Below are positions 1,151-32,000 of a stretch of 32,000 nucleotides of DNA, one piece after another. This DNA comes from Okeania sp. (lineage in GTDB: Bacteria > Cyanobacteriota > Cyanobacteriia > Cyanobacteriales > Microcoleaceae), in contig NZ_JAYKGW010000104.1 of the NCBI RefSeq assembly GCF_035285525.1, positions 31,898 through 63,897 on the forward strand. Reading direction: 5' to 3'. Position 1 is the first letter of the stretch. Every line of letters begins with the position of its first letter. Under the pieces are notes generated by a model. That model was not told the origin of the DNA. It did not search any database and saw only the letters and a program-made list of their open reading frames with translations. The translations under genes and the position numbers were made by a program.

Positions 1151-1210
1151 TGCTCAATTCCCCGAAATCTGCTGTCAAACTTATTCCTTCTTCTTTCTTC
1201 ATTCTTAAAA

Positions 1211-2377: not shown

Positions 2378-2430
2378 AGTTATTTTTGTCTAATTCCTGA
2401 AAAAAACTAATGTGATAATACTGAAGAAAA

Positions 2431-2494: not shown

Positions 2495-2573
2495 AAAAAA
2501 ACGGTATAGATAGTTTAATCATCTAAAGATGACTTTAGTTAAAAACCCACAGATTTTAATCCTTGGCAAACTT

Positions 2574-2636
2574 GGTTTGGGTTTGGAGACCAAACCCCGT
2601 TAGATAAAATTTTATAACTTCATTTCTTAGGGATAG
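2574..2636 (+). repeat. about 64-bp MITE-like dispersed repeat, copy 2
   Basis: GGGTTTGGAGACCAAACCCC forms an 8-bp stem. The remainder aligns with 2431-2494 and 30524-30584. Confidence 0.7.
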
Positions 2637-2668
2637 TTAATCTTTGGAAAAAATCCAATTATTAATTA

Positions 2669-3634: not shown

Positions 3635-3699
3635 AATAAATAGCGTGTTAGTTCTTGATACTTTGACTTCGATACAGACATTGTAGATCAAGTTTTTAC

Positions 3700-3830
3700 C
3701 TACTGCTAATTTTTGACTTTATCTAGGGCTGGCTGATTAAATATAAAAGTCTTTATAGATAAAAGTTTTAGCAACTTGTTTGTTGGAAAAAAGTAACAGC
3801 TTTTAGGTCAAAAAGGTGAAAAAAGTTAGG
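3700..3830 (+). repeat. dispersed intergenic repeat modules, copy 2
   Basis: CTAGGGCTGGCTGATTAAATATAAAAG and CTTTTAGGTCAAAAAGGTG match 1064-1150 and 18340-18432. Confidence 0.55.
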
Positions 3831-4006
3831 ACAAAAAGCTCACCCTTAAGAGAAAAATTAAAAGACAATTTTTCTATACGGACATTGCATGCAACATCCC
3901 TACTCCTCTATAACTCCTATTTCTCCTAAGTTCTCCTTCAGGGAAGGGTTAGGGGTAGATTTACTCCTTTATTATTCGAAAGTTATCAATTATTCACCCC
4001 TGTTAT

Positions 4007-4050
4007 CTATTCCCTATTCCCTATTTCCTATTTCCTACTCCCTGTTCCCT
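4007..4050. repeat. STRR-type heptamer array (CTATTCC-like, about 6 units)
   Basis: Units read ctattcc ctattcc ctatttc ctatttc ctactcc ctgttcc. The array overlaps the stop codon and last 9 codons of the GT2 gene. Confidence 0.9.
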
Positions 4051-5004
4051 TGTATAAATTTGCCCGTCATCCCAAAGAGATTGAATTCTTGTTTGCATAG
4101 CACTAAGAAAACCAAGAGTATAGAAACTTCCACGAGTAATTATTTTAATAGGAGAACCACTTTTATAACAAGGAGGATTCCCCAAAACATGACAATCAAA
4201 TAACTTACCAAAGAAACGCAGACATTGATTAAAAGTCAGATTTTTTAATCCCATAAAAAAGTGATTGTGATAGAAAGTAACTTGATATTTGAGCGACCTT
4301 GTAGAAATATCATGGCAACCTCCACTTTCTTCACCCAAGTGAACTAAAGAAGCTTCTGGATCGAACCAAATATGATAATCAGTTTGTCGTAACCTCAAAC
4401 AAAAATCTGACTCTTCCCGTACTGCACTACCCCGAAACCGCTCATCAAAACTCAGACCATACTTAGTAAAAATTTCTCGACGATAAGACATATTACAACC
4501 TCTTGCGGAAATGACTCTTTGAGGTTTAACTGTATGCACCAAATCTATATGATACCAAGCAATACCAGGGTCAAAAGCTTCTGGAGGTAAATTCTCTATT
4601 TCCAACTCTCCACCCGAATCTCCTAATTTCATTCGGTCAAATACTCGTCCTGCTACTGCTCCTATTTCTGGGCGAACATAGTTACGAGCATGAGCAGCTA
4701 AAAATCCCTTTTCCAAGCGTACATCATCATCAATAAAAATTATTATTTCCCCACTACAATGTCTGACCGCATAATTTCTCGCTCCTGGTAAACTTGCCCA
4801 AGTCAGACCAAATAATTTAATTTTGCCAGCATTAGCTTGTTCATCCAAATAAGCTTGAGTTTCTGGTTTATGAGTCGCCGTTTGGTCAACTACCAAAACT
4901 TCAAAATTAGGGTAATCTTGTTTAATAACATCAGCGATCGTATCAACTAGAGGTTCCTCCCGATTATAGGTAGGAATAACAACAGAAATTGATGGTAAAT
5001 TCAT
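4021..5004 (-). CDS. glycosyltransferase family 2
   Basis: 327-aa ORF with an N-terminal SVVIPTYNREEPL motif, a DxD motif (IFIDDDV), and a GT-A-like length and layout. Confidence 0.85.
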   Translation of the reverse strand: MNLPSISVVIPTYNREEPLVDTIADVIKQDYPNFEVLVVDQTATHKPETQAYLDEQANAGKIKLFGLTWASLPGARNYAVRHCSGEIIIFIDDDVRLEKGFLAAHARNYVRPEIGAVAGRVFDRMKLGDSGGELEIENLPPEAFDPGIAWYHIDLVHTVKPQRVISARGCNMSYRREIFTKYGLSFDERFRGSAVREESDFCLRLRQTDYHIWFDPEASLVHLGEESGGCHDISTRSLKYQVTFYHNHFFMGLKNLTFNQCLRFFGKLFDCHVLGNPPCYKSGSPIKIITRGSFYTLGFLSAMQTRIQSLWDDGQIYTREQGVGNRK

Positions 5005-5048
5005 AGTCTACTATCCTTTGAAGTTGAGTTTAATTTGATTTATATTTG

Positions 5049-6161
5049 CTAATTTTTTTTCTCCAAAACCTGCTTCCAGAAAAAGTTTTCCAAGAATATG
5101 AAGGTAAATAAATAAAATGTTAGTAAAACCATTGTTATTATCATCACAATAACTACTTTTAAATATGGTTCAACATCAAAAGTTTTTGTTAGGGGACCGA
5201 ATAAAACAAAGTATAGAGGTTGATGTATAAGATATATTTGGTATGAGTAGATACCTAGTAATGATAGTAATTCTAAGATATAGCGTATTTTTTTTTGTTG
5301 TTTACTCAATAATTCAAAAATCAAATAACAAGCTATAAAAAAGAAGGGAGTAAACAGAATATCAAATCCTTCCATATAGATAATATCTATTTTTTGCCAT
5401 GTCATTGATAAATAAACAACTAATCCTGTAGTAAAAACTCCTGTAACTACAGTATAATCTATCTTTCTAAAAGTAGATTTTTTCCAGAAGATAATACCCC
5501 AATATAATCCTAAGCACAACTGAAAAAAATAACTACCTAAGAAATCATTTTGTAATAGATACCAATAAACTTGAGATTTATTATCTATTAAAATGCAAGC
5601 TATTTTAGTTATAACTCCGCCAATGATTCCTAACCACAGAATTTTGGCTGGCTGACTATTGCAAATAATAAATATTAGGGGAATAACCAGATAAGCTTCT
5701 AAAATAACTGTAAAAAACCAAAACCCCGGATTAATTGCCTGAAATTTATAACCTGCTAGACCAATAATACTTAATAGTAGATTAAAATTTAGCTGTATAT
5801 TTCTGTTTCCGAAAAAATAATATAGCAATAAACTTAAAACAACAGCTAATATATAGCCTGGATAAATTCGATTAATTCTTTTGAGTACCCAATCTTTCCA
5901 ATTTACTTCTAGTTGCTCAGAGTTATTTTTTTGATTTTTTAACAAGAGAATGTAGCTAGTAGTAAATCCCGCCATTACAAAGAATATATCTACAGCTGCA
6001 TATCCCACTTTAGCACCAGCTCTATCTAATATACTAATCAGATTAATTTCCTTGGGGTAGTTTTGAAAAAAATGAAATAAAATAACACCTAAAATTGCTA
6101 AACCTTTAGTATAATCGACCCAATACAATCGATTTTTATTGCTAGGATTGTTACTAGACAT
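5049..6161 (-). CDS. acyltransferase-3 family integral membrane protein (sugar O-acyltransferase-like)
   Basis: 370-aa strongly hydrophobic multi-pass ORF with a family-typical N-terminus (YWVDYTKGLAILGVILFHF). Confidence 0.8.
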   Translation of the reverse strand: MSSNNPSNKNRLYWVDYTKGLAILGVILFHFFQNYPKEINLISILDRAGAKVGYAAVDIFFVMAGFTTSYILLLKNQKNNSEQLEVNWKDWVLKRINRIYPGYILAVVLSLLLYYFFGNRNIQLNFNLLLSIIGLAGYKFQAINPGFWFFTVILEAYLVIPLIFIICNSQPAKILWLGIIGGVITKIACILIDNKSQVYWYLLQNDFLGSYFFQLCLGLYWGIIFWKKSTFRKIDYTVVTGVFTTGLVVYLSMTWQKIDIIYMEGFDILFTPFFFIACYLIFELLSKQQKKIRYILELLSLLGIYSYQIYLIHQPLYFVLFGPLTKTFDVEPYLKVVIVMIITMVLLTFYLFTFIFLENFFWKQVLEKKN

Positions 6162-6166
6162 TTTAG

Positions 6167-6355
6167 TTATATAAAATAATTAATACAAGTGTAAGCATTC
6201 AGATTTTTCTGCGGAATTAATTTGTCACCAATAGCTTTTGAAATAACCAAACAATTAAGGTTAGCTAGTGACCTTTTTATTTCCTGCGAAATGGTAGGCA
6301 AACATAAGTTTAAATTCTCCTTGTAGATTAATTGCTCTTTCAGTGTGATAATCAT
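6167..6355 (-). CDS. possible small protein (62 aa), uncertain
   Basis: The ORF ends 5 nt before the acyltransferase start. An AAGATTGCTATATC extended -10-like motif (6365-6378, minus strand) lies 9 nt upstream of its ATG. I recognise no motif in the protein. Confidence 0.25.
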   Translation of the reverse strand: MIITLKEQLIYKENLNLCLPTISQEIKRSLANLNCLVISKAIGDKLIPQKNLNAYTCINYFI

Positions 6356-6513
6356 TTAATAACTGATATAGCAATCTTAAATAGGTTGCAACAAATCAAA
6401 AAATAGATAAAAAAACTGATTTCTCAGGAACCGTAACTCTTACCAGTTAAGTGTTCCCTATTCCCTAAAAGCAATAAAATTTTATACACGAATCAAATAG
6501 TGATAGCTAAATG

Positions 6514-7449
6514 CTATAGATAATTCAGAAAGATATTAAAATGACGCCAGCCTAAAAATCTTCTTTCTTCCTTTTTGACAGAAGAAGATATTTCTGCTAT
6601 TTCTATTAATCTACTAGGTGTTGTATTTCTATCTACTTTGATCCGAGGTAATTTATAATTATTTTTCCCCCACCCTAATTTTAAAATTTGATGATTGTAT
6701 AAGTAGCCGGAAACATAGTATTTAGATGTATAATTTTCTACCTGGGAATTAGAGTCATTATAGGGATATGCTAGATGAGTAGCAATTGTTTGGTTATTAT
6801 CCAGTTCTTTTGTACATTCTCTTAAAACTTGTTGAGCAGCTTCTAATTCTATTTTTAACTCTGGGGAATTTAGTTCTGTGAGTCTTTTATGACTAAAACC
6901 ATGAGATTGAACATCATAATATCCTTTATTGATTCCTATTTTTAATTCTTCACAACTTATATATTTCTTGATTTTTTTAGGATTTTTCATCGTTTCCGGG
7001 TTAACAAACAAAACTACTTTAACTTTTTGATTATATTTTTGATCTAGATATTCTAAAATTGGTAGTACATTAGTATTAATATTTTTATATCCATCATCAA
7101 AAGTTAGCAGAATCGCCTTTTGACCTATCTTTTCAGTGGGGATAGGCTGAGAGTTAGTTAAAAAATAATTATAAAGTTGATCAGTATCTAGAAACCAGTA
7201 ATTTTCACGAACCAAGTATTCTAGAAATTCGGCTAAATCTTGTTTTTTATAATCAAGACCATAGCTACTTTTTTGATTTTGAGTGTTAATAATATTATGG
7301 AAACCAAATATAGGAATTTTATCTGCTTCAAAGTTAACAATTAACCATGTTTCCAAATCAAAAAATATGGAAATTGTTGTACATAAACCTACTAAGAATA
7401 AAAATAAAATCCGAATTATTTTTAGTTTAAATATAGAATTTATTCCCAT
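6514..7449 (-). CDS. polysaccharide deacetylase (NodB homology domain) with N-terminal membrane anchor
   Basis: 311-aa ORF with the TFDDG motif (LLTFDDGYKN), an H-x3-H motif (SHGFSH) and an N-terminal hydrophobic helix. Confidence 0.8.
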   Translation of the reverse strand: MGINSIFKLKIIRILFLFLVGLCTTISIFFDLETWLIVNFEADKIPIFGFHNIINTQNQKSSYGLDYKKQDLAEFLEYLVRENYWFLDTDQLYNYFLTNSQPIPTEKIGQKAILLTFDDGYKNINTNVLPILEYLDQKYNQKVKVVLFVNPETMKNPKKIKKYISCEELKIGINKGYYDVQSHGFSHKRLTELNSPELKIELEAAQQVLRECTKELDNNQTIATHLAYPYNDSNSQVENYTSKYYVSGYLYNHQILKLGWGKNNYKLPRIKVDRNTTPSRLIEIAEISSSVKKEERRFLGWRHFNIFLNYL

Positions 7450-7701
7450 ATCATCTTTCTAATTCTCCTCTAAAAAATGGCAAATTGCAGTTATTTATTT
7501 CTAATTTTACCAAAAAATGAGGGTATGTGTCTCCCCTTTTAACCCGCGTTCCGCACGTCAAGTTATAACACTAGAATATTTCAAGCCTCCGACTTTAGTC
7601 GAAGTTCACTCTCTACTGATAACTGATAACTGAAATAACCTATCTGCGGAAGTAAATTTAATGCCTCTAGGAAGTTGCACGCTTAATGCTTACAAATAAA
7701 C

Positions 7702-9306
7702 TCAATTTTCCTCAGCTTCTTGAAGTTTTTTCTGTTCCTGTTTATCAATTTCTGGAATCCTAAAAATCACTCCGGCAAAATACCAATAATAAACCGCAAC
7801 TGGGTCTACATCAAGAGGGTAATAATAGGTGTTATAACTAATAATTAGAACAAAAACCCAATAGCTTGCACCCAAACTGCGCAGGTTTTTATCTTTAACT
7901 GAGCGATAAGCTTTAAAACCACTAACAGTAATACTTGTTAATAGGACTAACATTGCAATTGTACCTATAGGCCCTACTTCATAGATTAATTTAGGATAAT
8001 AAGTTTCAATTAACCTAGTTTTACCAAAAGCTCGAGCTGAGTTAGTAGCTCTCCCCAAACCAGCACCAAAAATTCCGTCTTGTGCATGATTAGACTCCTC
8101 AAATTGTTGGGTAATAAAAGCAGTGGGTGGTGAAGCTTCCCAGCGACCAACAAAACTATCTATCCGTTCTTGAACAACTGCAGGATTAGATACTACTATC
8201 CCTCCCAGTAGAACACCTAGTCCAATACCAATAGGAAGAAACCGTTTGAGGTTTGTTACCTGACCTGTTAAAACTAAGAGTATTATTGTTACGGCGGGAA
8301 CCAGAGCTAGAGCAATTCTTTGACCGCTAATAGCTGCATTAACAAAAACTACTGCCATTCCAAATAAACCAGCTATTCGCCAGAGGCCAGAGGGATCGCT
8401 AAAAGCAACTGCAAAAGTAAAGGCAGCATTAGAAATCAAGAACCATGCCCATTGCCAAGGTGCAACAAAAGTACCAGGTAAACGAATCACACCCTCACTA
8501 GGGCTAAATAGTAGGGCACCTCCTACCAAGCATTTAGCTTCTAAGGTTGCTTTAAATAGGTCGTCTCCACTTTTACCCCTAGTACCGTTACACTTTCCAG
8601 AGGAAAGGAATTGATACTGCACCACACCAAGCAAACAACACACAATAGCTAGAATTACTGTCAAACGGGCAGCAAATAATAACTCTTTTTTACTTTTGAG
8701 TTTATAATAAGCCCCTGTAATTAGAGGTAAGTAGCCAATCATTGCTTTGAGTCCTAATATTCCCATAGGAATTGCTTTATCTCCTGGTATGGGAGGGTTA
8801 AGTTGTTGAGAACCATTAACTAAAAGTAGAGTGACTAGACAAAACCCCAGTAAAATATACAGGGGATTTTTCATTGCCTTGGGAATAATGAATGGATTTT
8901 TTGTATTTTTACACCACAAACCAATAGCAATAATTGCCGGAACATAAAACCCATCTTTGGCTAACTGAAATATTGGGCTTCCACCACCGATCCAATAAGT
9001 AACAGTGCCTGCAAAGGGCATATAAATCATAAATCCCCACAGCCCTAACATCGGATATTTATAGGAAAGAGCTAAAACTGCTATACCACCACCACCAGCA
9101 AGAGCTATTTTAGGTTCTGCGACGAAAAATAATACAATGCCTATCACAACTCCTATACCACCATAAGTAACCAAAGAACCAATCAATTCCTGAATTTGTT
9201 TGGCTCGTTGGCGCTTTCTGGCAGCTAGCTCTTTTTTGCTAATTTGGGGAGCCGCAGGTTTGCCTTTCTTTTTTGATTTCTTTTTAGACTTTTTTTTGGT
9301 CGGCAT
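7702..9306 (-). CDS. polytopic membrane protein, O-antigen ligase/polymerase (Wzy_C)-like
   Basis: 534-aa ORF with a Lys-rich cytoplasmic N-terminus and many hydrophobic helices. A GAGLGxxxN motif (GIFGAGLGRATNS) follows a large loop, as in Wzy/WaaL-type proteins. The function call is tentative. Confidence 0.55.
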   Translation of the reverse strand: MPTKKKSKKKSKKKGKPAAPQISKKELAARKRQRAKQIQELIGSLVTYGGIGVVIGIVLFFVAEPKIALAGGGGIAVLALSYKYPMLGLWGFMIYMPFAGTVTYWIGGGSPIFQLAKDGFYVPAIIAIGLWCKNTKNPFIIPKAMKNPLYILLGFCLVTLLLVNGSQQLNPPIPGDKAIPMGILGLKAMIGYLPLITGAYYKLKSKKELLFAARLTVILAIVCCLLGVVQYQFLSSGKCNGTRGKSGDDLFKATLEAKCLVGGALLFSPSEGVIRLPGTFVAPWQWAWFLISNAAFTFAVAFSDPSGLWRIAGLFGMAVVFVNAAISGQRIALALVPAVTIILLVLTGQVTNLKRFLPIGIGLGVLLGGIVVSNPAVVQERIDSFVGRWEASPPTAFITQQFEESNHAQDGIFGAGLGRATNSARAFGKTRLIETYYPKLIYEVGPIGTIAMLVLLTSITVSGFKAYRSVKDKNLRSLGASYWVFVLIISYNTYYYPLDVDPVAVYYWYFAGVIFRIPEIDKQEQKKLQEAEEN

Positions 9307-9565
9307 TTTTGAGTCAGTTTTAACTAGCTATTAGCATTCAGCTCTCAGCCCTCAGTTTCAGGACTTACGCAAAGAAACCGGGTTTTTAGGATAAATCCTT
9401 CGTTGTTTTTCACAATTTTTAGCTATTAGCGTTTAGCTCTGAGCTATCAACTTCAGGATTTACCGATTAGGATCAAAATTCCCTCCAACCACAAGTGCAA
9501 TATTGTTTAGGAGGGGTTAAAATCTCCTTCTAAACTTCAAAAAAATAATTTTGTTGAGCGCTTTT

Positions 9566-11023
9566 TTAAGCTAGATGTTGCTGGACTGCTAAAACTAAGT
9601 TCTCTGTCCAAGAGTCTGCTAGTTCAGCATTTATTGCCTCTACCATAACTCGAATTACTGGCTCTGTGCCAGAGGCTCGGACTAAAACCCGCCCAAAATC
9701 TGCTAAAGCTGTTTCTGCTTCTTCTATGGCTTTGACTAATGGTTCGCACTTTTGCCAGTTGACTCGGCGATCGCGGTCTTCAACTCGGACATTTTGGAGT
9801 AGTTGGGGATAGGTTTGAAAGCTTTGGTCTACTAATTCTGCTAAAGAAACTCCAGAATTTTTGACTAGGGTGGCTAAATGCAGGGCTGTCATTAGGCCAT
9901 CTCCTGTCATTCCATAATGGGGACAGAGAATATGTCCTGACTGTTCTCCGCCTAACATGGACCCTGTGCGCTGCATTTCTCTATAAACGTATTGGTCTCC
10001 TACTTTTGTCCGTAATATTTTTCCACCCTGTTTTTCCCAAGCACGTTCAAAACCTAAATTAGCCATAACTGTGGTTACTATTATGTTTTCTGGTAATAGT
10101 CCAGCTTTACTTAAACTTTGGCCCCAGAGATAGAGTATATAATCTCCATTAATGGAACGACCTTGGGAATCTACTGCTAATACTCGGTCTGCATCTCCAT
10201 CAAAGGCAAATCCTATATCAGCTTTGTTTTCTATTACTGCTTCTTGGAGAGTATGAAGATGGGTAGAACCACAGTTGACATTGATGCGCTCGCCGTCTGG
10301 TTCGTCATGCAAAGTAATAATTTCTGCCCCCATTGTCTGAAAAACTTCTGGGGCAGTATGAACTGCTGCTCCCCAAGCTAAGTCGAGAACTATTTTCATT
10401 CCCTGGAAATGCCCAGGAGTTAAAGGGGAATATAGGGATGCTTGATACTTTTTGACTAATTCGGGTCTATGGTAATATTGTCCCCAGTTACTGTGGATGG
10501 TGGGAAAATCTGCTGTGCCTCTAATTCCAGATTCTATCTGTTTCTGTAATTCTGAAGAGAGTTTTGTTCCATCAGAGCCAAAAAATTTGATTCCATTATC
10601 TTCTGGTGGGTTATGACTAGCAGAAATCATTACTCCCCCTATTGTTTCGGAAATGCCAGTCAGATAAGCAACGCAGGGGGTAGGGCATAAACCTAAATTC
10701 CAAACTTCTAAACCTGCTGCGGTTAAACCTGCTGATAGAGCCATTCCTAGCATATTGCCAGAGTTTCTGGAATCTTGACCCATAACTACTGGGCCAGGAT
10801 TTTGAGAATATTGGCGCAATACTTGTCCAGCCCAAAAACCTATTTTTAGGGCTAGAGGGGCGTTGAGTAGTTCTCCTGCTTTGCCCCGGATGCCATCTGT
10901 ACCGAATAGGGGTGTTGTGGGTAAGGATTTACTATTCCAAATTGATGTTATTTCTGTCGCTGTGGATGATAAATTCAAAGTATTTTGTTCGTAAGTTCCC
11001 TTGAATGATGGTATGCTTACCAT
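9566..11023 (-). CDS. glmM: phosphoglucosamine mutase
   Basis: Has the active-site Ser loop [19 protein letters not shown], the metal site FAFDGDADR and the sugar loop GGEQSGH. I prefer the ATG at 11023 (MVSIP..) because AGGAG (plus-strand ctcct at 11032-11036) sits 8 nt upstream. The tracked GTG at 11032 overlaps that Shine-Dalgarno site. Confidence 0.9.
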
Positions 11024-12510
11024 AATTTTCACTCCTGGTCAATATTAAGTTATTCTCACTCTCAAACAAGAGAATAACACCTTCAGACTCAATAAAAAGG
11101 CAAGGAAAGAAGATGAGTTTATAGACATTTAAGGATTTCTTGGTGGCAGTTCTATAATCTCAAGAGCTACTCTAAACTCATCCCTGGATAGGAAGTCAGG
11201 ATATCCAGAAATAGAATAGGGTTTGCTGATTAAATCCCCTCGCATTTATAAATAAATAAGAGAAAAAAGTAGAACAATAGCCCCATTATGCACCATCTCT
11301 TGATTACTACATCTCCCTACCTAATTTTATAGATACTAAGTGGTTTTTATATGGAACTATTTGTGAATTTCACTCTCATATAAACTGTTAAGATACAGAA
11401 AAAATTGTGAATGTTTATTTATTGCTAGAGAAAATTAAAATACAAATACAAAATCATTAATTATTGACTATATAGCAATTCTATTTTATTTTTGTATAAA
11501 AATCTCACTCCTTTTCGGTAGGTCGGCAATGGGCAATGGGTAATACCCTTTCTCAAAAAGAATGTTATATCTGATTGGATGGGGAAGTTTGGTTCCTGTA
11601 GTTCCTGTCGGGAGAGGAAAAGTAGAAAAAATAATTACTAACCAACTCATCATTGGTAAAAACAGACTTTTAGTCTTGGTAAATATTGACTTTTGAAGTC
11701 TAGCTCAGGTATGGCATTAATGCATGGTAATTGGTATAAGACTTTCGGAGTTTATTTCTAGTTTTTGATTACCCGCAACATATTTATTATTGCTATAATA
11801 TGAAATTTCCTGGTCAATTCTGACCATTAGTCACAAAAAGGGTGAAAAATCAGAGATAAGTAATTTTTTTACCAAAAAGTATAACAGCATAGTCTTGAAA
11901 AAATAATCAGTAATCCAATTTAAGAATAATTTATAATAAACATATATCTATTACAATAGAACCAAAAAAACTAAATAGTTTTGGCTGAAAAACATTTAAC
12001 TCAATTATTTTAAGATTATCCAATACTCAAAAAAAATCACTTTCTCACATGTAGGTAAATTTGCTATATATAAAAAAATAGGTAATCATTTCCTACGGAA
12101 TGGTGCAAAAACATCCTTCAGCTATCAGCCATCAGAAGAGTGCTTTTAGTTTTCGATAAAAGCTTTATGATACGGTTCCCGATCAATCAGAAATTTTATC
12201 TGAACTACAAAATTCAGTTTCCAAGTTTATATTCTTTTAAATCTCAACCTTAAGGAGGAGATTTTTATTTCTGAATGCTGAATGCTAATAGCTAAATGCT
12301 TACAAAAATAGTTAATACTTCTGATTTGAAATAGCAAACCCTTAACCTGTAAACCTCCATAACCATACTTGAATATCCCAAGTTGAAATTTTCTTTCGGA
12401 GGTATTAAAAGCATTCTAGGTGATGAAAAAAAACAAAAAGAGTTAGTTAAGCACTCTTATCGTCATCGACTGAAAAGTTATTACTAATAGTTAGTAGAGT
12501 AAATTTTGTT

Positions 12511-23974: not shown

Positions 23975-26185
23975 ATGCTCATCTGTCCCCAATGTGAGTT
24001 TGAAAATCCTAACAATAATAAATACTGCCAAAAATGCGGTAAATCCTTAACCCACAAGAATTGTTATAAATGTGGGTCAAAAGTCTCCTTGACCGATCTA
24101 CAATGTCACAACTGTGGGGCCGATACGGGTCAAGTATGGAAGGCCATTATTAATAAAACTTTGTCCTTAGAGGCGAGTGCCCATCAAACAGAGATTAATC
24201 TAGAGAAACTAGACCAAGAAGAATTTGTTGTCGAAGAAATTTCCTTAACTAAAGAGTCAGCAGCAGATACCATTGATAATGAAGAAAAAGAGTCTGAAGA
24301 AATCATCAAACTCTCCGAACTTTTTGAGGAGAAAATTAGTACAGAAAAAATTATAGAACCTAGTAAGACTCTAGCTATATCACCTTCAGATATAGAATCC
24401 GTAAATCCTCCATTAGAAACAATAACTGAAGTTGATAATCAAACCCAGGATATAGAAGATTCAGATAATTCAAAATCAACAAATGTGGATATCCTCAGCC
24501 AAATTCCTGAAGTAACAACCACAGAAAATGAATCATCCCTAAATAGTACAGAAAATATTTCAAATATATCAGAAAAATACTTAGATTCTGAAGAACGCTA
24601 CCAATTATTAGAAACTATACCAATAAACAACCAAGAACAAACAATAGTTGTACAAGTATTAGATCTTTATCCACTAGAAAACACCCCAATTAGAGCTTGG
24701 TTGAAAAATAACTCTCAAAAAAGATTTAAACAAAAAACTCCCGAAATGGAAGCCTTAATTGTTCCTATGATTGCCCAACCATACATAAATTTATATAGCC
24801 AAATACCCCAATATTTGCCAGAGATTCATGATAGTTGGCGATCGCCAGATCAAGAAATATTACTTGTAACAGACTATAGCAGTTGGCCAAAATTAGTAGA
24901 TTTCTGGAAAACTGAAGATATCTCCCAACAGCAGATTTTATCATGGTTACAGCAAATTACAGAACTTTGGGTAGTCTTAGCTCCCTGCAATTCTTGTCAA
25001 AGTATAGTAGAATATGACAACCTCCTAGTGAATCAAGCTGAGAATAACTTGATTAAGTTACAACGCTTATACTTAGAACCTGATGAAGAAAAAAATGATA
25101 TTAATAACTTAATGCTATTCTGGCAAGGGCTGTTTGAAAAATCCCAACGTACACACTTTAGTTGGATAACAGATTTATTTCAAGGTTGGCAGAATGGCGA
25201 AATACAAACTATCGAAAAATTGCGATCTTATTTAATGAATACTCAAAACAGTTTACAACCTCAACCAATTTCTAAATCTTCACCGACAACTTTGCAAATA
25301 GATGATTCTGCTTCAAAAGTAGTAGATAATATTGAGACTCAAGATACTCAACTTTTACCAACACAACTAATTAGTTTAGAAAGTTCAGGTAAAACTAATG
25401 TAGGTACTCAACGTGACCATAATGAAGATGCTTTTGGGATTCAAACTCAAATAGAAAGTCAACAAACAACTACCGAAAAAATTATTCAGGCAAAAGGAAT
25501 TTATATACTTTGTGATGGTATGGGAGGGCATGCTAGTGGAGAAATAGCTAGTCAGTTAGGGGTAGACACAATTAAACAATACTTTAACACTGAAGGTAAT
25601 TGGTTCGTAGATATGCCTTCAGAGGAAACAATTCGTACAGCAATTCTCAAAGCAAATGAAGTAATTTACGATATTAACCAGCAAGAAATCCGTTCTGGTA
25701 GTAGTCGTATGGGTACTACTTTAGTTATGGCAATGATTTACGATACAAAATTAGCTGTCGCTCATGTAGGAGATAGTCGTCTGTACCGCTTTTCTCGTAA
25801 GGGAGGTTTAGAACAAATTACTTTAGATCATGAAGTAGGTCAAAGAGAAATCAATCGAGGAATTGAAGCAGAAATAGCTTATGGTCGTCCTGATGCTTAT
25901 CAATTAACTCAAGCTTTAGGACCACGAAATGAAAATTTTGTGAGACCTGATATCCAGTTTTTGAATTTAGATGAGGATAGTCTATTAATTTTAGCATCTG
26001 ATGGTTTAACAGATAATCAGCTTTTGGAAAACAATTGGCAAACTCACCTCGAACCACTTTTAGATAAAAAGGCTGATTTGGAGTTGGGTGTAAATAAGTT
26101 AATTGATTTGGCAAATCAGTATAATGGTCACGATAACATTACAGCAATTGCGATCCGTGCCTTAGTTAAACAGCAACAAGACTAG
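23975..26185 (+). CDS. zinc-ribbon / central domain / PP2C-type Ser/Thr phosphatase
   Basis: 736-aa ORF. Four N-terminal CxxC pairs are present (CPQC..CQKC..CYKC..CHNC), followed by an acidic low-complexity linker. C-terminal PP2C motifs are RDHNEDAF, LCDGMGGHASGE, VAHVGDSRLY, LASDGLTD and DNITAIAI. Confidence 0.85.
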   Translation: MLICPQCEFENPNNNKYCQKCGKSLTHKNCYKCGSKVSLTDLQCHNCGADTGQVWKAIINKTLSLEASAHQTEINLEKLDQEEFVVEEISLTKESAADTIDNEEKESEEIIKLSELFEEKISTEKIIEPSKTLAISPSDIESVNPPLETITEVDNQTQDIEDSDNSKSTNVDILSQIPEVTTTENESSLNSTENISNISEKYLDSEERYQLLETIPINNQEQTIVVQVLDLYPLENTPIRAWLKNNSQKRFKQKTPEMEALIVPMIAQPYINLYSQIPQYLPEIHDSWRSPDQEILLVTDYSSWPKLVDFWKTEDISQQQILSWLQQITELWVVLAPCNSCQSIVEYDNLLVNQAENNLIKLQRLYLEPDEEKNDINNLMLFWQGLFEKSQRTHFSWITDLFQGWQNGEIQTIEKLRSYLMNTQNSLQPQPISKSSPTTLQIDDSASKVVDNIETQDTQLLPTQLISLESSGKTNVGTQRDHNEDAFGIQTQIESQQTTTEKIIQAKGIYILCDGMGGHASGEIASQLGVDTIKQYFNTEGNWFVDMPSEETIRTAILKANEVIYDINQQEIRSGSSRMGTTLVMAMIYDTKLAVAHVGDSRLYRFSRKGGLEQITLDHEVGQREINRGIEAEIAYGRPDAYQLTQALGPRNENFVRPDIQFLNLDEDSLLILASDGLTDNQLLENNWQTHLEPLLDKKADLELGVNKLIDLANQYNGHDNITAIAIRALVKQQQD

Positions 26186-26384: not shown

Positions 26385-27602
26385 GTGATTAGGTTAACCC
26401 TCCTAGACCCTCAAAAAAATACTCCTATAAAAAAATGGGACTTTCAGAGAGAATCAATCATAAAAGTTGGTCGTTCTCCTGACAATCATATTGTTTTATC
26501 TGATACTTTAGTTTCCCGATACCATCTAGAACTACATAGAGTATCAAAATCCGTAAATCTTTGGCGCATAATTAGCCAAGGTACAAATGGAACTTTTGTC
26601 AATGGAATTTTGATGTCTCAGGGAATTGTTTCTGATGGTTCCCTGATACAGTTGGCAAGAAGTGGCCCAATTATCAAATTTCAAGTCCAAACTCCTACTG
26701 CTCCCCAAAACCCCAAAAAATGTTGTCCCCGTGCCGAAGATAACCCTCCAGGAAATTTATTTTGCATCTATTGTGGTCAACCAATTCGGGTTGAACGTAG
26801 TATTCGTCAGTATCAAGTATTGCGGACATTGGGTCAAGGTGGGATGGGTACTACCTATTTAGCATGGGATCGGAAGCAACATAATTTACAGGGTATAGAT
26901 GCTTCCCCTACTGCTTCTCTAGTGGTACTCAAGGAAATGAATGCTGACATGGCTCAAATTATGAAAGCTCAAGAATTATTTGAGCGAGAAGCTAAAGCAC
27001 TAAAATCTTTGAATCATCCCGGTATTCCTAAATTCTTCGACTTTTTTGTGGAAGAAGACAAGAAATATTTGGCAATGGAAATGATTCATGGTCAAGATTT
27101 GGAGAAACGCATTGTTACTCAAGGTCCAATTTTGCCACAACAAGGAATAGAGTGGATGATTCAGACTTGCGAGATTCTAGAATACATTCATTCTCAAGAA
27201 CCTCCACTTATTCATCGGGATATTAAACCTGCTAATCTTCTAATCCGCCGCCGTGATAATCAGATCGTGGTTTTAGATTTTGGAGCAGTCAAAGAAATTG
27301 GAACACCTTTAGGTACACGAATCGGTGCAGAAGGTTATAGCGCTCCCGAACAAGACCGCGGACAACCTTTGACTCAATCTGACTTGTATGCGGTGGGTGC
27401 AACTCTGATTTTTGTGCTGACCAGTCAAAGTCCTATGAAGTTTTATGACAATCGTGGTGATGGTTATCGGTTTCATATTGAAAGCGTTCCCACCATTACA
27501 CCACAACTACGAGAGGTGATTGAAAAAGTTACACAACCACTCCCTAGCGATCGCTATCAAACTGCTCCAGAGTTAGCAGAAGCACTAAAGAATTGTCTGT
27601 AA
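26385..27602 (+). CDS. FHA domain / zinc-ribbon / Hanks-type Ser/Thr protein kinase
   Basis: 405-aa ORF with a GTG start per the track. The FHA domain reads GRSPDNHIVL..SRYHLEL..NGTFVNG. A Cys cluster reads CCPR..CIYCG. Kinase motifs are GQGGMGTTYLA, VVLKEM, HRDIKPANLL, DFGAVK and SAPE. Confidence 0.85.
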   Translation: MIRLTLLDPQKNTPIKKWDFQRESIIKVGRSPDNHIVLSDTLVSRYHLELHRVSKSVNLWRIISQGTNGTFVNGILMSQGIVSDGSLIQLARSGPIIKFQVQTPTAPQNPKKCCPRAEDNPPGNLFCIYCGQPIRVERSIRQYQVLRTLGQGGMGTTYLAWDRKQHNLQGIDASPTASLVVLKEMNADMAQIMKAQELFEREAKALKSLNHPGIPKFFDFFVEEDKKYLAMEMIHGQDLEKRIVTQGPILPQQGIEWMIQTCEILEYIHSQEPPLIHRDIKPANLLIRRRDNQIVVLDFGAVKEIGTPLGTRIGAEGYSAPEQDRGQPLTQSDLYAVGATLIFVLTSQSPMKFYDNRGDGYRFHIESVPTITPQLREVIEKVTQPLPSDRYQTAPELAEALKNCL

Positions 27603-27867: not shown

Positions 27868-28086
27868 CTAATCTTCTTCCCAAGCTTCTACAGCTAACAG
27901 TTCACTAACTGGATCTTGCATAGAAAAACCAAACTCTTGTAGTTCTTTTTTCCAAAAGTGCCATTTATCACCAAAAAGTAGGGCAATTTTCCAGATACTA
28001 TCTGTTGGCTTGATTATATTAGATTTGACAAGGGAATTCACCTGACGCTGGAACTTGTCCATCGGGTGCATAACCTTTTGGTTCAT
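27868..28086 (-). CDS. small hypothetical protein (72 aa from MNQKV..)
   Basis: I prefer the ATG at 28086 because AGAGG lies about 6 nt upstream on the minus strand. I recognise no motif and coding status is uncertain. Confidence 0.35.
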   Translation of the reverse strand: MNQKVMHPMDKFQRQVNSLVKSNIIKPTDSIWKIALLFGDKWHFWKKELQEFGFSMQDPVSELLAVEAWEED

Positions 28087-28448
28087 AATACCTCTTGATT
28101 TTTTTGAAATTCTGCTTACAGCTACCCCTCTCCTTCTCACTTTTACCGATTTGAGGACTTTTCGTGGCCTTGAGAGAAGTAGTTTGTATTCTTATAATCT
28201 AGAATACTTAGTTTCTTTTGGCAAGACATTATAAGTAAAACTAAATCATTGAAAATGAATGGTGATCTTTGTTTATACTTCCTGGATTTTTATTTGTTTT
28301 GCTACTTGAATAAATTGTATTAATGTGATATACGAATCTTAATTTTGAGGGAATAGAGAATAGAGAATAGGTAAGAATTTCGGAGGTTTTCATTTGCTTT
28401 TTGATTTGTCACAATCAATTAGGAAATAGACCTCTCCAGAAAAAACGA

Positions 28449-28726: not shown

Positions 28727-29785
28727 CTAAAAGTCAGTTAATAGTCTAACCTTTCTGAGAACAAAAGTTAATACAGTTTCCTGAGAATAGATAATATCAG
28801 CTCTTCCTTCCATTCCTGGTTGAATTGGATATTGACGATCACTTTTGACTAAATAAGGTTGTTCAGGTTTTATGATCGCCTCATAATAAGCTTCTTGTAG
28901 CACTTCTGGAGTGATAGCATCTGGAGATATTGAACTGACAGTTCCTTTGAGAATACCATAATCAGGAAAAGGATAAGCTGAAACCCGAATCTGTACAGGT
29001 TGACCGACTTTTACCCTGGCGATATCTGCTGCTGTCACTCTACCTTTAAATACTAAAGGTGCGTTACTGGGAACAATTTGAGCGATCGCTGTTCCTGTTT
29101 CGACAGTTTGTCCAGGATTGCGTAAAAATAACTTAAGTATAGTACCATTTGCCGGGGCGATAATTACACTATGGTCAAGCTTGGTATTTATCTGTTCTAG
29201 TTTTGTGTCACCAACAGTCAATTCTTTAATTAGTTCGGTTCGCTTGACTATTAGATCGCGTCTATCTTTAGCAAACTGTTGAGCAAGTTGAGGTAAAGAT
29301 TGGGATAGTTTTAAAATAGCTGAATCAATAGATGAATCATCTATCTTAGTTGATGGCTGAAAATTCTGAGGTTTAGCAGTAGCTAAAATTTGCACTTCTA
29401 GAGCAGATATTTGTTGATTAATTTGCTCTAGTTCCATATTGCACTGTTTTATTTTTTCTTCCAGTTGACTTTTTTTACGGTTGAGAGTGGATTCATCTAT
29501 GCGTGCGATCGCATCTCCCATCTGAACTACTTGATTTTCACTTACTTCTATACTGTCAACTTTACCCTCTGTTAGGGCTTGAACAATTCTTATATCTCCT
29601 GTTGGTCGAGCAATAGCTTCAGTTCTGACAGTAGGATTATATTTGATTACACTCATTAGAGCAATAGCTGCACTAAATGTTCCTAGTAATAACATTCCCC
29701 CTATTTTATTCCAACGACTCATAGGAGGGAGAAATTCATCACTTTCTAGGGGTTGTAATTCTATAGAATCAGAATTATTAAACAT
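28727..29785 (-). CDS. HlyD-family periplasmic adaptor (membrane fusion protein) of a peptide/protein exporter
   Basis: 352-aa ORF with an N-terminal anchor (IGGMLLLGTFSAAIALMSVI) and a lipoyl-like half-motif (GKVDSIEVSENQVVQMGDAIARID). It also has a coiled coil (LNRKKSQLEEKIKQCNMELEQINQQISALE) and a beta-barrel region (GTILKLFLRNPGQTVETGTAIAQIVP). Confidence 0.8.
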   Translation of the reverse strand: MFNNSDSIELQPLESDEFLPPMSRWNKIGGMLLLGTFSAAIALMSVIKYNPTVRTEAIARPTGDIRIVQALTEGKVDSIEVSENQVVQMGDAIARIDESTLNRKKSQLEEKIKQCNMELEQINQQISALEVQILATAKPQNFQPSTKIDDSSIDSAILKLSQSLPQLAQQFAKDRRDLIVKRTELIKELTVGDTKLEQINTKLDHSVIIAPANGTILKLFLRNPGQTVETGTAIAQIVPSNAPLVFKGRVTAADIARVKVGQPVQIRVSAYPFPDYGILKGTVSSISPDAITPEVLQEAYYEAIIKPEQPYLVKSDRQYPIQPGMEGRADIIYSQETVLTFVLRKVRLLTDF

Positions 29786-30523
29786 AATTAATTTTTACTT
29801 ACTAAAATAATTTTTTTGAGATTAAATTGAGAAATTAATATTATTTGGATTTACGCAGAAACCTGGTTTCTTTGGAGAAATTTTGGGGTTTGAGCAACAA
29901 TATTGCAGTAATAAACCCGATTTATTGGTTGCTTTGCGTAAGTAGTAATTTTGCCTCCAAAAGCAATTTTTAACTTCAGCTTACTAAAAATAAAAGAAAT
30001 AACATAAATAATCCGGAGAAAGTTAAAACTCGTAGATATTAAGGTTAAAGTTAATACTTCACAGAAAATTATCGTGGGAGTTGACAAAAATCCGGATAGT
30101 GCAAATTATTTGGGAATATAAACTAAAATTCCTTGAGGATTTGTAGAAATCAGCAAAGATTATCAATATTTTCTCAAAATTATAGCAATCCTGTTTGAGT
30201 CGTGTATAAGATGTCATTGCTTTTGAGGAATGGTTAAGGGTTATACAAATTCTCATGTATTATTGCTATACTTGAGTAATACTTCAGTCATCAAATAATT
30301 AACACAAACCAAATTATTTTTTGCCAATTTTAGCTAAGTTAATGTGGATTTTTCTGATGTTTACTTCTCCCCCACTCCCTTACTCTCCTACTCCCCTGCT
30401 CAATCAAATGTAGAAAAATTTTTGAGAAATGGTATTAATAGGTAGGAATTTCAGTTTTTTATTTACTTTTTGATTTGTCACAACCTATAACTGTAAGAAA
30501 TGATTTGCGATCAAAAAACTATA

Positions 30524-30584
30524 GGGATTTGGAGAGCAAACCCCTACAATAAAATCTTACAACTTAATTTAGGATTGCTATATA
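30524..30584 (+). repeat. about 64-bp MITE-like dispersed repeat, copy 3, ending in AGGATTGCTATATA just upstream of the first peptide gene
   Basis: GGGATTTGGAGAGCAAACCCCTACAATAAAATCTTACAACTTAATTTAGGATTGCTATATA aligns with 2431-2494 and 2574-2636. Confidence 0.7.
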
Positions 30585-30603
30585 AACTATGAGGGAATTC
30601 ATC

Positions 30604-30819
30604 ATGCAAGAATCTCAACCAAAGCAACTTTTTACAGAATTAAATTTAGAAGAATCTACCAAAATAAATGGTGGTTATAATGAAAATAATCAATATCGCC
30701 TGAATTTTTTAGGGTTTCAACTTTGTCCTCGGAGTTATTACAAATATAACCGTTATTCTCCTGAATATAAACCTTACAGTTCTAATTATTATAAAGGAAA
30801 TATAAAAGGCTATTACTAA
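30604..30819 (+). CDS. double-glycine-leader precursor peptide 1 (24-aa leader + 47-aa Tyr/Asn/Lys/Arg-rich core)
   Basis: The leader MQESQPKQLFTELNLEESTKINGG is paralogous to those of the next two genes. GAGGGA (30591-30596) lies 7 nt upstream of the ATG at 30604. The tracked ORF starts 15 nt earlier, at 30589. Confidence 0.7.
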   Translation: MQESQPKQLFTELNLEESTKINGGYNENNQYRLNFLGFQLCPRSYYKYNRYSPEYKPYSSNYYKGNIKGYY

Positions 30820-31429
30820 AATAATTTCAGTTATTAGTTATCAGTACCTTATTCTCAAACTAAGGGCTTAAAAAACTGAATTATTTTCATCACTTTGAGA
30901 GAAGAAGTTTGAAGATTTATCTATTGGTCATATTTTCATAATTCTTATTTATTTTTATATTTTATGTAGTAGGCTTGAATGGCTATAAAACCCTGCAAAT
31001 GTTGTATAATTTCATCTTTTGGATAAGTTCTAATTTTTTAATTTTCAACAAATCAATCTGAGATTATTCTATTTAAGTAAAAATTATTTAATTCAGTATC
31101 TATCCGGATATTGCTAACTAACCAGGAAGAATAGAACGGTAAGCATTCAGCTATTAGCACCTCACCAGTCAGCTCTTAGTTTTTTTTAATGAATGAAGTA
31201 AGTCAAGCGTTCTTGCAACTTCAACTTCTACTTTTCAACTATATATCTGAGCTTTTAACCCATATAATTTATAGCTGGAAATTATAGATGTTTTTCAGAA
31301 GTGGATAGCTGTTTCGCTACGCGACATGAAAAGCGAAGCTCCTCTGTTTGCGAAGCATTCGGAAGGAAAAGAGGCTAGCTGAGTGCTGAATGCTTACATA
31401 GAATGCAATTAAGTTTGAGGAAAATATCT

Positions 31430-31642
31430 ATGGAAGAAACTCAAAATAGCGAACTATTTTCTAACCTTTCTACTGAAAAATCCGCTACTATTAATGGCGG
31501 TCATTATTACAATAATTACGGTTATGGTCGCTCCGTATATTACTATAATCGTCCTATTATTAACCATCATTATCGTAGTTACAACCACCGTTATAATCGC
31601 CCTATCAGTTATAGCTACCAACGCAATTACAATTGCTACTAA
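31430..31642 (+). CDS. double-glycine-leader precursor peptide 2 (24-aa leader + 46-aa Tyr/Asn/Arg/His-rich core)
   Basis: The leader is MEETQNSELFSNLSTEKSATINGG. GAGGA (31417-31421) lies 8 nt upstream of the ATG at 31430. The tracked ORF starts at 31403. Confidence 0.7.
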   Translation: MEETQNSELFSNLSTEKSATINGGHYYNNYGYGRSVYYYNRPIINHHYRSYNHRYNRPISYSYQRNYNCY

Positions 31643-31923
31643 AAATTAGCAAAAAATATCCTGAAACTTTAACTAAACTCAAGAATAATCTATTAAAAAT
31701 AACGAGATAGTTGAATCAATAAATCCTAAGGATTCAGCACTCAGCGAGCAGCTATTAGCTTTTGTAGTTAACCTATAATTTTCTGTCCTAAAATAATGAA
31801 AAATAGAAGTTAAAACCAAACTCAATTCATTCATTAAAAAGGGCGTTGCTAACGGCTAATTACTAATAGATGGATGCTTAGATAAACTATCTTATTCATT
31901 GAATTAAATCCCAAGCAAAAACG

Positions 31924-32000
31924 ATGCAAGAAACTCAAAATAACGAACTCTTTTCTGATATTTCTACTGAAGAATCTGCTGCTATTAATGGTGGTCATGG
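31924..32000 (+). CDS. double-glycine-leader precursor peptide 3 (5-prime part only, truncated by the window end)
   Basis: It is not in the ORF track because it is cut short. It reads MQETQNNELFSDISTEESAAINGGH.., with the same 24-aa leader pattern and the same His after GG as peptide 2. Confidence 0.6.
   Translation, partial: MQETQNNELFSDISTEESAAINGGH

Follow-up and report, generated by a model that had tools for sequence, protein, structure and literature searches.

A 32,000-nucleotide stretch of Okeania sp. DNA (called the window here; position 1 is its first letter and the G+C content is ~32%) ends with three short genes on the plus strand, in the part 30589-32000. These are gene A, gene B and a third gene that runs off the window end. 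The complete genes A and B encode small precursors consisting of a leader that ends in Gly-Gly and a core that is dominated by tyrosine. The questions raised by this locus are whether such open reading frames (ORFs) are genes at all, by which route their products leave the cell and what the products do there. As judged from the conservation of these ORFs in related cyanobacteria, they are genuine genes of a conserved secreted-peptide family. The genomic context strongly indicates that the peptides are double-glycine-leader cargo of the export type formed by a peptidase-containing ABC transporter (PCAT) and a HlyD-family adaptor. For the mature peptides a role in the extracellular matrix is tentatively favoured.

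The window leaders comprise 24 residues and have the form M-Q-E-x-Q-x-x-(E/Q)-L-F-(S/T)-x-(L/I)-(S/N)-x-E-(E/K)-S-x-x-I-N-G-G (the sequences of leaders and cores are listed in Table 1). The core sequences are exactly those given in the preliminary description, which was made from the DNA alone, with Tyr at 12 of 47 positions in core A and at 14 of 46 positions in core B. The other features noted in that description are also confirmed: there is one Cys in each core, both cores have a C-terminal Tyr and the second core is without Asp and Glu. The Tyr content of the window cores is beyond what chance or the local composition explains, when compared with the background of 3.7% Tyr in the 16 large ORFs of the window, where a 46-aa stretch has a maximum of 9 Tyr (binomial P=1e-7 and 7e-10 for the two cores). 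The predicted mature peptide A has an average unmodified mass of 5931.5 Da, a pI of 9.4 and a grand average of hydropathy (GRAVY) of -1.46; for peptide B these values are 6027.5 Da, 9.6 and -1.66. In the AlphaFold2 models, calculated for the alignments of type A and of types B/C/D (these types are described below), only a short leader helix is seen, with a mean predicted local distance difference test (pLDDT) score of 53.5 and 53.1, respectively. There is no helix in core B, and core A has one 3-residue helical turn (residues 61-63, pLDDT ~50). This agrees with the earlier description of the cores as Tyr-dominated, cationic and of low complexity, and as different from lanthipeptides and from the helical class II bacteriocins. 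The window peptides match no family in Pfam or NCBIfam, a PDB profile search with the peptides finds nothing at E<=1 and an Rfam scan of the whole window gives no match. An Okeania sp. metagenome-assembled genome has 'hypothetical protein' entries with 100% identity to both window peptides, the entry for peptide A being VKJ25_09730.

Related loci were collected via the HlyD protein, which gives 21 loci of Dapis, Okeania, Trichodesmium (including T. erythraeum IMS101) and other Microcoleaceae. Of the 20 loci that extend far enough on the peptide side, 19 have peptide genes of the same kind, 1-6 per locus and on the strand opposite to that of HlyD. The resulting set of 74 peptide genes from 20 loci, window included, sorts into four types. 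Type A has the pattern YNEN..FLGFQLCPRSYY..NYYKGNIRGYY (47 aa, 23 invariant positions), type B the pattern HYYDDCYGYGRPVRYYRRPVSYHYRSY..SRPVSYSY..DCY, type C the pattern HGYYGRY..YRRYYRRPVRYYSRRRYYGGCY and type D the pattern HGCGC..GYGRSVSYGYG..GGCY, as in the example GYGYGRGGYRGGYGYG. The window holds a type A gene, a type B gene and, when judged by its leader, a type D gene, and there is no type C gene in the window. The DNA of this third gene is 84% identical to the leader region of gene B, and its leader matches the type D orthologues.

The conservation of these genes is extensive. The leader pattern ..(Q/E)LF(T/S)(E/D)L..EES.(T/K)INGG is found in all 74 genes, with L9, F10, S18, N22 and G23 being invariant. 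The 19 type A orthologues have a mean column identity of 80%, and in the 20 type B homologues the motifs YGYGR.V.Y, RRPVSYHYRSY and SRPV.YSY and the C-terminal CY are kept. Type A is 69-86% identical, as compared with 76-86% for HlyD among the 19 close loci, such that both evolve about equally slowly. For the cores the pooled pairwise ratio of nonsynonymous to synonymous substitution rates (dN/dS) is 0.21 (A), 0.22 (B), 0.44 (C) and 0.50 (D); these values are rough, as the pairs are non-independent and the alignments are of low complexity, and all are clearly <1. In each type 13-14 columns have Tyr in at least half of the sequences, many of them invariant, and these columns are kept together with the frame, the leader and the stop codon in 17-20 orthologues per type. 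It is because of this conservation of frame, leader, stop codon and Tyr columns that the genes are considered real, which is a stronger argument than their composition. Evolution of the cores in the manner of non-coding DNA, one of the outcomes envisaged in the preliminary description, is contradicted by the Tyr columns and by the dN/dS values. The internal duplication noted earlier for core B (YNRPII/YNRPIS) stands only in part: both hexapeptides are present, but they are not a local duplication, being rather two degenerate copies of the family-wide motif R-[PS]-[VI]-x-Y, which occurs 2-3 times (as RPVSY, RPVRY or RSVSY) in types B, C and D of all species.

It could be argued that the ORFs are chance frames in AT-rich, TAT-rich repetitive non-coding DNA, when considering that the genome has ~32% G+C, that dispersed repeats are inserted around the genes and that alternative frames are also open. 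This has next to no probability and is effectively refuted by the core dN/dS values of 0.21-0.50 and by the preservation of leader, Gly-Gly site, Tyr columns and stop codons over 20 loci and in distant genera. The position of the genes between HlyD and PCAT is also constant where both are present. Translation of a dispersed repeat, raised earlier as a possible explanation, is ruled out as well: BLASTN searches of both genes against the window and all loci return orthologous or paralogous array genes only and never dispersed non-coding DNA. The open alternative frames encode hydrophobic sequences, for example at 31494-31649 on the plus strand (MAVIITIITVMVAPYITIIV...), which are open across species and have equivalents in 19 loci. 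They are open because TAT/TAC-rich coding generates ATT/ACN codons in the +1 frame, and most likely these ORFs are a coding by-product and not genes. Their possible role as immunity peptides was considered and rejected, because it is the Tyr frame that is under selection and because these ORFs lie over the peptide genes themselves.

The mature peptides of the four types have 38-60 residues (4-7 kDa), of which 25-35% are Tyr; they are rich in Arg, Gly, Asn and Ser and have hardly any aliphatic hydrophobic residues. Their net charge is 0 to +12, mostly +3 to +12, the GRAVY is about -1.5 and the pI is about 9-10 in types A, C and D. The number of Cys residues is 1 in types A and C, 3 in type D and 1-2 in type B (1 in the window peptide B). 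Types B and D avoid YY and prefer Y-x-Y, whereas types A and C retain YY doublets, this being a descriptive statement on related sequences.

The family extends beyond the close relatives. A word-indexed search of 5.8 billion protein clusters with the family alignment as query finds 68 clusters; all named ones are 'hypothetical protein' entries, from Okeania, Trichodesmium, Dapis, other Microcoleaceae and one 'Cyanobacteria bacterium SID2'. That a conserved family exists, for which the preliminary description had suggested a search, is also borne out by an exhaustive hidden Markov model (HMM) search of 1.84 billion 50%-identity representatives, with 100 matches at E<1e-3, 97 of them being peptides 37-100 residues long that have this leader, mostly with Tyr/Arg-rich cores. 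Tyr makes up at least 15% of the core in 77 of these 97 and at least 25% in 46, with a maximum of 48%, although the match list is somewhat biased to Tyr-rich cores because the HMM profile included core columns. Cys is present in 77 of the 97 cores, and Y-R-P or R-P-V motifs occur in many of them. In about 20 of the 97 representatives (P0085, P0091, P0094, P0099, P0106, P0116, P0119, P0121 and others), the Tyr-rich core is followed by a tail ..(T/Q)(T/V)NVNV..(D/N)D. The named members of this wider set are from Symploca, Lyngbya, Limnospira, Zarconia, Kovacikia and Leptolyngbyaceae, and with the close relatives included, all are filamentous cyanobacteria.

The distant loci show the same organization. 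A Leptolyngbyaceae locus has HlyD, two peptides and PCAT, a Zarconia locus has four peptides and a Kovacikia locus, in a complete genome, has three peptides and PCAT. In Lyngbya sp. CCY1209 the order is PP2C phosphatase, FHA-kinase, DUF4327 protein, HlyD, peptide and PCAT, being the order of the window as far as HlyD and the peptide (L027, 4330-8205), despite an identity of 40% between the HlyD proteins; the kinases are 64% identical, and the PCATs of T. erythraeum and Lyngbya 67%. Between the Lyngbya core, HYHPRYCYYDSYYKPTYYYHASSYKPRYCYY, and the window cores no alignment is possible, but the former is cationic, has 42% Tyr and has Cys near both ends. Because this core is unalignable and nevertheless Tyr-rich and cationic, the property that is selected in this family appears to be the composition (~30% Tyr, cationic, Cys near the termini) and not the sequence.

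The assignment of the peptides to the PCAT/HlyD export type is based on the leader, on the C39 transporter of the relatives and on HlyD. The HlyD gene is divergent to the peptide genes and adjoins the peptide array in 21 loci. In most relatives with sufficient sequence, the gene of a 736-aa C39-peptidase ABC transporter comes directly after the array and has the same orientation. This protein is a short-type PCAT, with an N-terminal Peptidase_C39 domain (E=2e-37) and the catalytic-Cys motif DCGAACL. A PCAT gene is also located directly 3′ of the peptide gene(s) in the distant loci L023, L026 and L027 (Leptolyngbyaceae, Kovacikia and Lyngbya). Beyond PCAT the gene content is variable and includes TPR or HEAT-repeat proteins, toxin-antitoxin pairs, patatin and transposases. 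In two Leptolyngbyaceae loci (L023, 13985-14581, and L024, 11664-12260) the second gene after PCAT encodes an Rce1-like CPBP membrane protease (PF02517). In locus L014 an IS66-family transposase is found between gene A and HlyD.

Table 1. Coordinates of the peptide genes, of their upstream elements and of the neighbouring genes in the Okeania sp. window.
Feature	Position	Strand	Remarks
Precursor gene, type A	30604..30819	+	Alternative upstream ATG at 30589; ORF 30589(30604)-30819
Type A leader	30604-30675	+	MQESQPKQLFTELNLEESTKINGG, ending INGG
Type A core, 47 aa	30676-30816	+	YNENNQYRLNFLGFQLCPRSYYKYNRYSPEYKPYSSNYYKGNIKGYY
Precursor gene, type B	31430..31642	+	Alternative upstream ATG at 31403; ORF 31403(31430)-31642
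Type B leader	31430-31501	+	MEETQNSELFSNLSTEKSATINGG
Type B core, 46 aa	31502-31639	+	HYYNNYGYGRSVYYYNRPIINHHYRSYNHRYNRPISYSYQRNYNCY
Third precursor gene, 5′ end	31925..32000	+	Leader MQETQNNELFSDISTEESAAINGGH...; cut by the window end
Conserved upstream control region of gene A	29995..30180	+	~82% identical across genera
ATCCGGA(T/G)A boxes	30011-30019, 30090-30098	+	Inside the control region
Sigma70-like promoter, predicted	30081-30109	+	TTGACA-17-AATTAT (promoter scan)
Third box copy	31102..31110	+	ATCCGGATA; 328 nt upstream of gene B
MITE-like dispersed repeat insertion, ~400 bp	30181..30582		Perfect 12-nt terminal inverted repeats TATAGCAATCCT / AGGATTGCTATA
HlyD-family periplasmic adaptor	28727..29785	-	Pfam HlyD_3 1.4e-19; NCBIfam type_I_hlyD 1.8e-46
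DUF4327 protein	27868-28140	-	
FHA-Ser/Thr kinase	26385-27602	+	
PP2C phosphatase with double zinc ribbon	23975-26185	+	
MITE, miniature inverted-repeat transposable element.

The preliminary description had proposed, from the dense aromatic-X-(Asn/Arg/His) triplets, that the cores might be cross-linked to cyclophanes of the triceptide type, and it had suggested an inspection of the flanking DNA for the respective enzymes. The search for such genes covered 28 loci: the window, with all its large ORFs, and 27 related loci (21 orthologous and 6 distant ones), the related loci being taken with flanks of up to 10 kb on either side. No radical SAM/SPASM, P450, tyrosinase/polyphenol oxidase, laccase, MNIO, YcaO or LanM gene is present in these loci, one of which is in a complete genome. 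What defines triceptides is an aromatic-X2-X3 motif in which a co-encoded radical-SAM enzyme has linked the aromatic side chain to a C-beta atom (PMC11499958). The window cores do hold aromatic-X-X triplets, including Y-N-R and H-Y-R, but the defining maturase is absent and the triplet density is that of shuffled sequences: when compared with composition-preserving shuffles, core A has 1 aromatic-X-(N/R/H) triplet vs 2.9 expected and core B has 9 vs 6.8 (p=0.16). The triceptide proposal for the window peptides is thus not upheld. An origin as spliceotides (X-Y-G) and MNIO or methanobactin-like Cys chemistry were likewise discarded, as there is no enzyme for these at any locus. Since there is no dedicated modifying enzyme nearby, the products are most likely unmodified apart from disulfide or oxidative chemistry.

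It is conceivable that the cores are nevertheless substrates of a pathway for peptides that are made ribosomally and then modified post-translationally (RiPPs), with the Tyr residues being modified by an enzyme encoded elsewhere in the genome, such as a radical-SAM triceptide synthase, an Arg-Tyr cross-linker, an X-Y-G splicease, a biaryl P450 or a tyrosinase generating 3,4-dihydroxyphenylalanine (DOPA). There are many aromatic-X-X triplets and Y-G dipeptides, and triceptide synthases act on motifs such as HNR and YDR (PMC11499958). When pooled, types B and D have more aromatic-X-(N/R/H) triplets than shuffled sequences (z=3.2 and 4.5, inflated by the relatedness of the sequences), whereas type A is depleted. 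Modification sites could be marked by the R-P-V-x-Y motif and the C-terminal C-Y, both of which are strictly kept. This possibility is improbable in view of the absence of such an enzyme in the window and the 27 related loci, of the triplet counts of the window cores and of the leader, which is a short 24-residue export leader; also, known triceptide precursors are co-encoded with their maturase (PMC11499958).

The locus class itself has been catalogued before. Table S3 of Wang, Fewer & Sivonen 2011 (PMC3140520) has four entries from T. erythraeum IMS101 among its putative bacteriocin precursors of 'group III' (CDS31, CDS32, CDS33 and Tery_0624), located at 1,014,731-1,014,961, 1,017,160-1,017,384, 1,017,591-1,017,803 and, for Tery_0624, 1,017,941-1,018,180. 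They coincide exactly with the genes of types A, C, B and D found here in the T. erythraeum locus (L011). The group III clusters agree with the present loci in having several short GG-leader precursors, a short-type C39-peptidase ABC transporter and HlyD, and no modifying enzyme; they differ in that the precursors are only catalogued as 'other', with no family, conservation analysis or function being given, and the main text never mentions tyrosine (PMC3140520). In our literature search no later paper was found on Tery_0622 to Tery_0626, and none on Tyr-rich double-glycine/C39 peptides in cyanobacteria. The same Table S3 also lists as group III Synechococcus elongatus Synpcc7942_1134 and CDS28-30 (PMC3140520), which later became ebfG1-4/pteB. 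In S. elongatus PCC 7942 biofilm formation requires the EbfG GG-motif proteins, which are secreted via the C39 transporter; of these, EbfG1-3 assemble into amyloid and EbfG4 is located on the cell surface and in the matrix (PMC4997328, PMC9981879). This is the only experimentally studied group III cluster found, and it is a matrix system and not a bacteriocin system. The likeness to the window locus concerns the cluster architecture and class, that is, a multi-gene operon of small GG-motif proteins with a C39 PCAT. The mature EbfG proteins differ from the window peptides, being of 6-7 kDa with the amyloid hotspot A-Phi-N-I-(G/S) and not being Tyr/Arg-rich, and sequence homology between them is unlikely.

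Another likeness, already pointed out in the preliminary description, is that with mussel foot protein 3 (mfp-3), and it is borne out by the composition, with a cosine similarity of 0.71-0.91 as compared with 0.47 for the background; by type, the cosine to mature mfp-3 is 0.91 (D), 0.80 (C), 0.79 (A) and 0.73 (B). Mature mfp-3 of Mytilus (UniProt Q9GUX8; PMC9287526) has 46 residues, with 22% Tyr, 26% Gly, 17% Arg and 9% Asn, and ends with KYY. It is therefore a small, basic, secreted peptide rich in Tyr, Gly, Arg and Asn, similar in size, charge and composition, whereas it is eukaryotic and secreted by means of a signal peptide, there is no homology and the resemblance is one of convergent composition only. 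Adhesion by mfp-3 depends on the enzymatic conversion of Tyr into DOPA and on Arg hydroxylation. A gene for a Tyr-to-DOPA enzyme is not found at any of the examined cyanobacterial loci.

From these data it is considered possible, at somewhat less than even probability, that the mature peptides act outside the cell as a matrix or cell-surface 'glue' and not as pore-forming toxins. Gene A would be transcribed from the region 29995-30180, of which the conservation is observed and the function is presumed, by means of the sigma70-like promoter with the ATCCGGAT palindrome. Precursors of 62-85 residues would be translated, as suggested by their conservation. From the established function of these families it is expected that the C39 domain of PCAT would recognize the leader and cleave after Gly-Gly and that the cores of 38-60 residues would be exported with HlyD and an outer-membrane partner. 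The absence of tailoring genes nearby suggests that no further enzymatic modification would follow. Outside the cell, the Tyr and Arg residues would serve as multivalent stickers (by pi-pi and cation-pi contacts), the positive charge would bind to anionic sheath or exopolysaccharide, and the unpaired Cys, possibly also Tyr, would form covalent cross-links, such that the filaments cohere in mats, tufts and colonies. Because of the odd Cys counts (types A, C and D and the window peptide B), a free thiol would be available for such intermolecular links.

In function the peptides would then be analogous to EbfG1-4 and in composition convergent with mfp-3. This proposal is in agreement with the biofilm matrix function of ebfG1-4/pteB, which belongs to the same class as the T. 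erythraeum orthologues. It is also in agreement with the syntenic position of the locus, its presence in nearly all related loci with enough sequence and the purifying selection. Further points in its favour are the composition that is kept where the sequence is not, as seen for the window and Lyngbya, the hydrophilic character without a confident AlphaFold2 fold, the compositional likeness to mfp-3, the Cys counts, the occurrence of all named members in filamentous cyanobacteria and the absence of any immunity gene candidate in 20 arrays, in which the conserved ORF clusters are the peptides and their own alternative frames only. An adhesive or matrix role, proposed in the preliminary description because of the Tyr-rich composition, is compatible with all findings, has indirect support and fits better than the triceptide idea. 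A more specific version, unlikely as a joint claim, is that the PCAT/HlyD system of Trichodesmium, Okeania, Dapis and other filamentous cyanobacteria would secrete a cocktail of 4-7 kDa Tyr/Arg/Gly-rich peptides as an adhesive or coacervate, by which the trichomes would be kept together in mats and colonies and be attached to particles, for example dust. In this version the cocktail would be convergent with mfp-3 and with high-Gly/Tyr keratin-associated matrix proteins and would be cross-linked via the unpaired Cys and possibly Tyr; its secretion might be under the control of the FHA-kinase/PP2C pair and of the palindromic operator.

Several observations weigh against a matrix function. The window ends, at 32000, before any PCAT position, and in an Okeania clade (L009, L010 and L013-L015) HlyD and three peptide genes (A, C, B) are present without an adjacent PCAT; its place after the array is taken by a glycogen phosphorylase gene, and thus the exporter of this clade is encoded elsewhere or lost. 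No Tyr-oxidizing enzyme (tyrosinase, peroxidase) for the formation of DOPA or dityrosine is found in the loci examined. The double-glycine leader with PCAT and HlyD is the classical export route of bacteriocins and microcins, and the Rce1-like gene two genes after PCAT in L023 and L024 belongs to the CPBP family, which is often tied to bacteriocin self-immunity. The conservation across genera would equally suit a conserved defence peptide. Homologues of mature EbfG1-4 are reported to be absent from other cyanobacteria (PMC4997328), and small cationic Gly/Tyr/Arg-rich peptides are antimicrobials in nematodes (NLP/CNC; PMC6780910).

The main and serious rival of the matrix proposal is an antimicrobial role, with the cationic peptides being unmodified and forming a new Tyr/Arg/Gly-rich class among the class II bacteriocins or microcins of Gram-negative bacteria. 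Exported by PCAT/HlyD, the peptides would target competitors, grazers or epibionts and bind to anionic envelopes or intracellular polyanions without insertion of a helix into the membrane. The architecture of leader, PCAT and HlyD is canonical for such peptides, the net charge is mostly +3 to +12, the Rce1-like/CPBP gene is near PCAT in two loci and the T. erythraeum orthologues are listed as putative bacteriocin precursors (Wang et al. 2011, PMC3140520). Type D (GYGYGRGGYRGGYGYG) resembles nematode NLP/caenacin peptides with YGGYG motifs, of which NLP-31 is reported to bind DNA without membrane disruption (PMC6780910). These are basic and rich in Gly and aromatic residues, with YGGYG-type repeats comparable to GYGYGR/GGYRGGYGYG of type D, whereas they are made as animal signal-peptide precursors and the window types A and B are Gly-poor; the direct antimicrobial evidence for the nematode peptides is itself limited (PMC6780910). 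The leaders of distant members also match weakly, at model positions 2-29, the NCBIfam model NF038167 'CTB family bacteriocin', but the scores of 12-19 bits are below the cut-off of 32 bits, only the leader is matched, the cores are unrelated and the window peptides have no match at E<=1. An antimicrobial function appears somewhat unlikely when considering that no immunity-gene candidate is conserved in the arrays, that the syntenic locus is found in nearly the whole clade and experiences purifying selection, whereas bacteriocin loci usually are patchy and evolve fast, and that the only studied cyanobacterial cluster of this group is a non-bacteriocin system.

It may also be envisaged that the peptides are secreted signals (pheromones or autoinducers), sensed via the FHA-kinase/PP2C pair or another receptor and coordinating the behaviour of the filaments. 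In Gram-positive bacteria, GG-leader peptides exported by PCATs are pheromones, which counts for such a function, as do the gene order shared with Lyngbya despite the divergence of HlyD, the high conservation of type A, with its 23 invariant positions, and the palindromic promoter box, which suggests tight regulation. This is quite improbable, because pheromones are normally short and specific, whereas here there are 3-6 paralogues of 38-60 low-complexity residues, the cores of which diverge freely in sequence with the composition being retained. The kinase is also without an evident extracellular sensor domain in a Pfam scan, and the synteny may simply be inherited.

The control region (Table 1) directly abuts gene A in all relatives. 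The palindromic box ATCCGGAT(A) is found ~115 and ~195 nt upstream of most type A genes (loci L001-L021), the palindrome falls within the spacer of the sigma70-like promoter and the 12-mer of the box has 2 exact matches in the window vs 0.24 expected; the box is a candidate operator. It is also present 102-107 nt upstream of the type C gene in five related loci, and such a type-C-like promoter box is retained upstream of gene B in the window (31102-31110). The in-frame upstream extension of gene B (MQLSLRKIS) resembles that of the type C genes in L009, L017 and L020 (MSLSLRKI..), and gene B may be a C/B recombinant, formed by deletion between homologous leaders. In the window, the MITE-like insertion sits between the conserved promoter region and gene A. 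It is absent from all relatives, and internal segments of it recur at 1033-1066, 2435-2496, 6381-6419 and 28366-28414 and in related loci. It is not part of the system; it may affect expression and might uncouple gene A from its promoter. Gene B is flanked by inverted-repeat pairs (31139-31158 / 31378-31397 and 31367-31396 / 31727-31756, GTAAGCATTCAGC... / ...GCTGAATGCTTAC), which possibly represent additional repeats or small mobile elements.

On the HlyD side, the PP2C/FHA-kinase neighbourhood could reflect inherited synteny or a kinase/phosphatase switch that controls secretion; an analogy is the FHA/PpkA/PppA module, by which type VI secretion is under kinase/phosphatase control. This side of the window further encodes a RecJ-like protein, regulators and polysaccharide genes including HpsL. 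The polysaccharide block (105-11032, ~20 kb from the peptide locus) comprises GT1, GT2, acyltransferase 3, polysaccharide deacetylase, HpsL (hormogonium polysaccharide; NCBIfam 1.3e-256) and phosphoglucomutase.

Clearly, this is a real, widespread and unannotated family of Tyr-rich secreted peptides with a known exporter type, and not a new kind of system: the locus class is known from the genome mining of 2011, in which the orthologues were catalogued without comment. The export machinery is well known and the cargo is not, being a conserved family without a Pfam, NCBIfam or PDB model. The interest of the family comes from this unusual cargo and from the ecological importance of its hosts. 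In every locus of Trichodesmium, Okeania and Dapis that was examined, the family is conserved. Of these hosts, Trichodesmium fixes N2, forms blooms and is of global importance; the other two form mats and blooms. The molecular basis of the aggregation of filaments into colonies and of particle adhesion is poorly understood. If the peptides are indeed a matrix glue, the question of aggregation would become testable, and the peptides could serve as genetically encodable Tyr-rich adhesives. If they are antimicrobials, the bacteriocins of Gram-negative bacteria would gain a new class that is non-helical and Tyr-rich. In both cases the default label 'bacteriocin precursor / hypothetical protein' is corrected.

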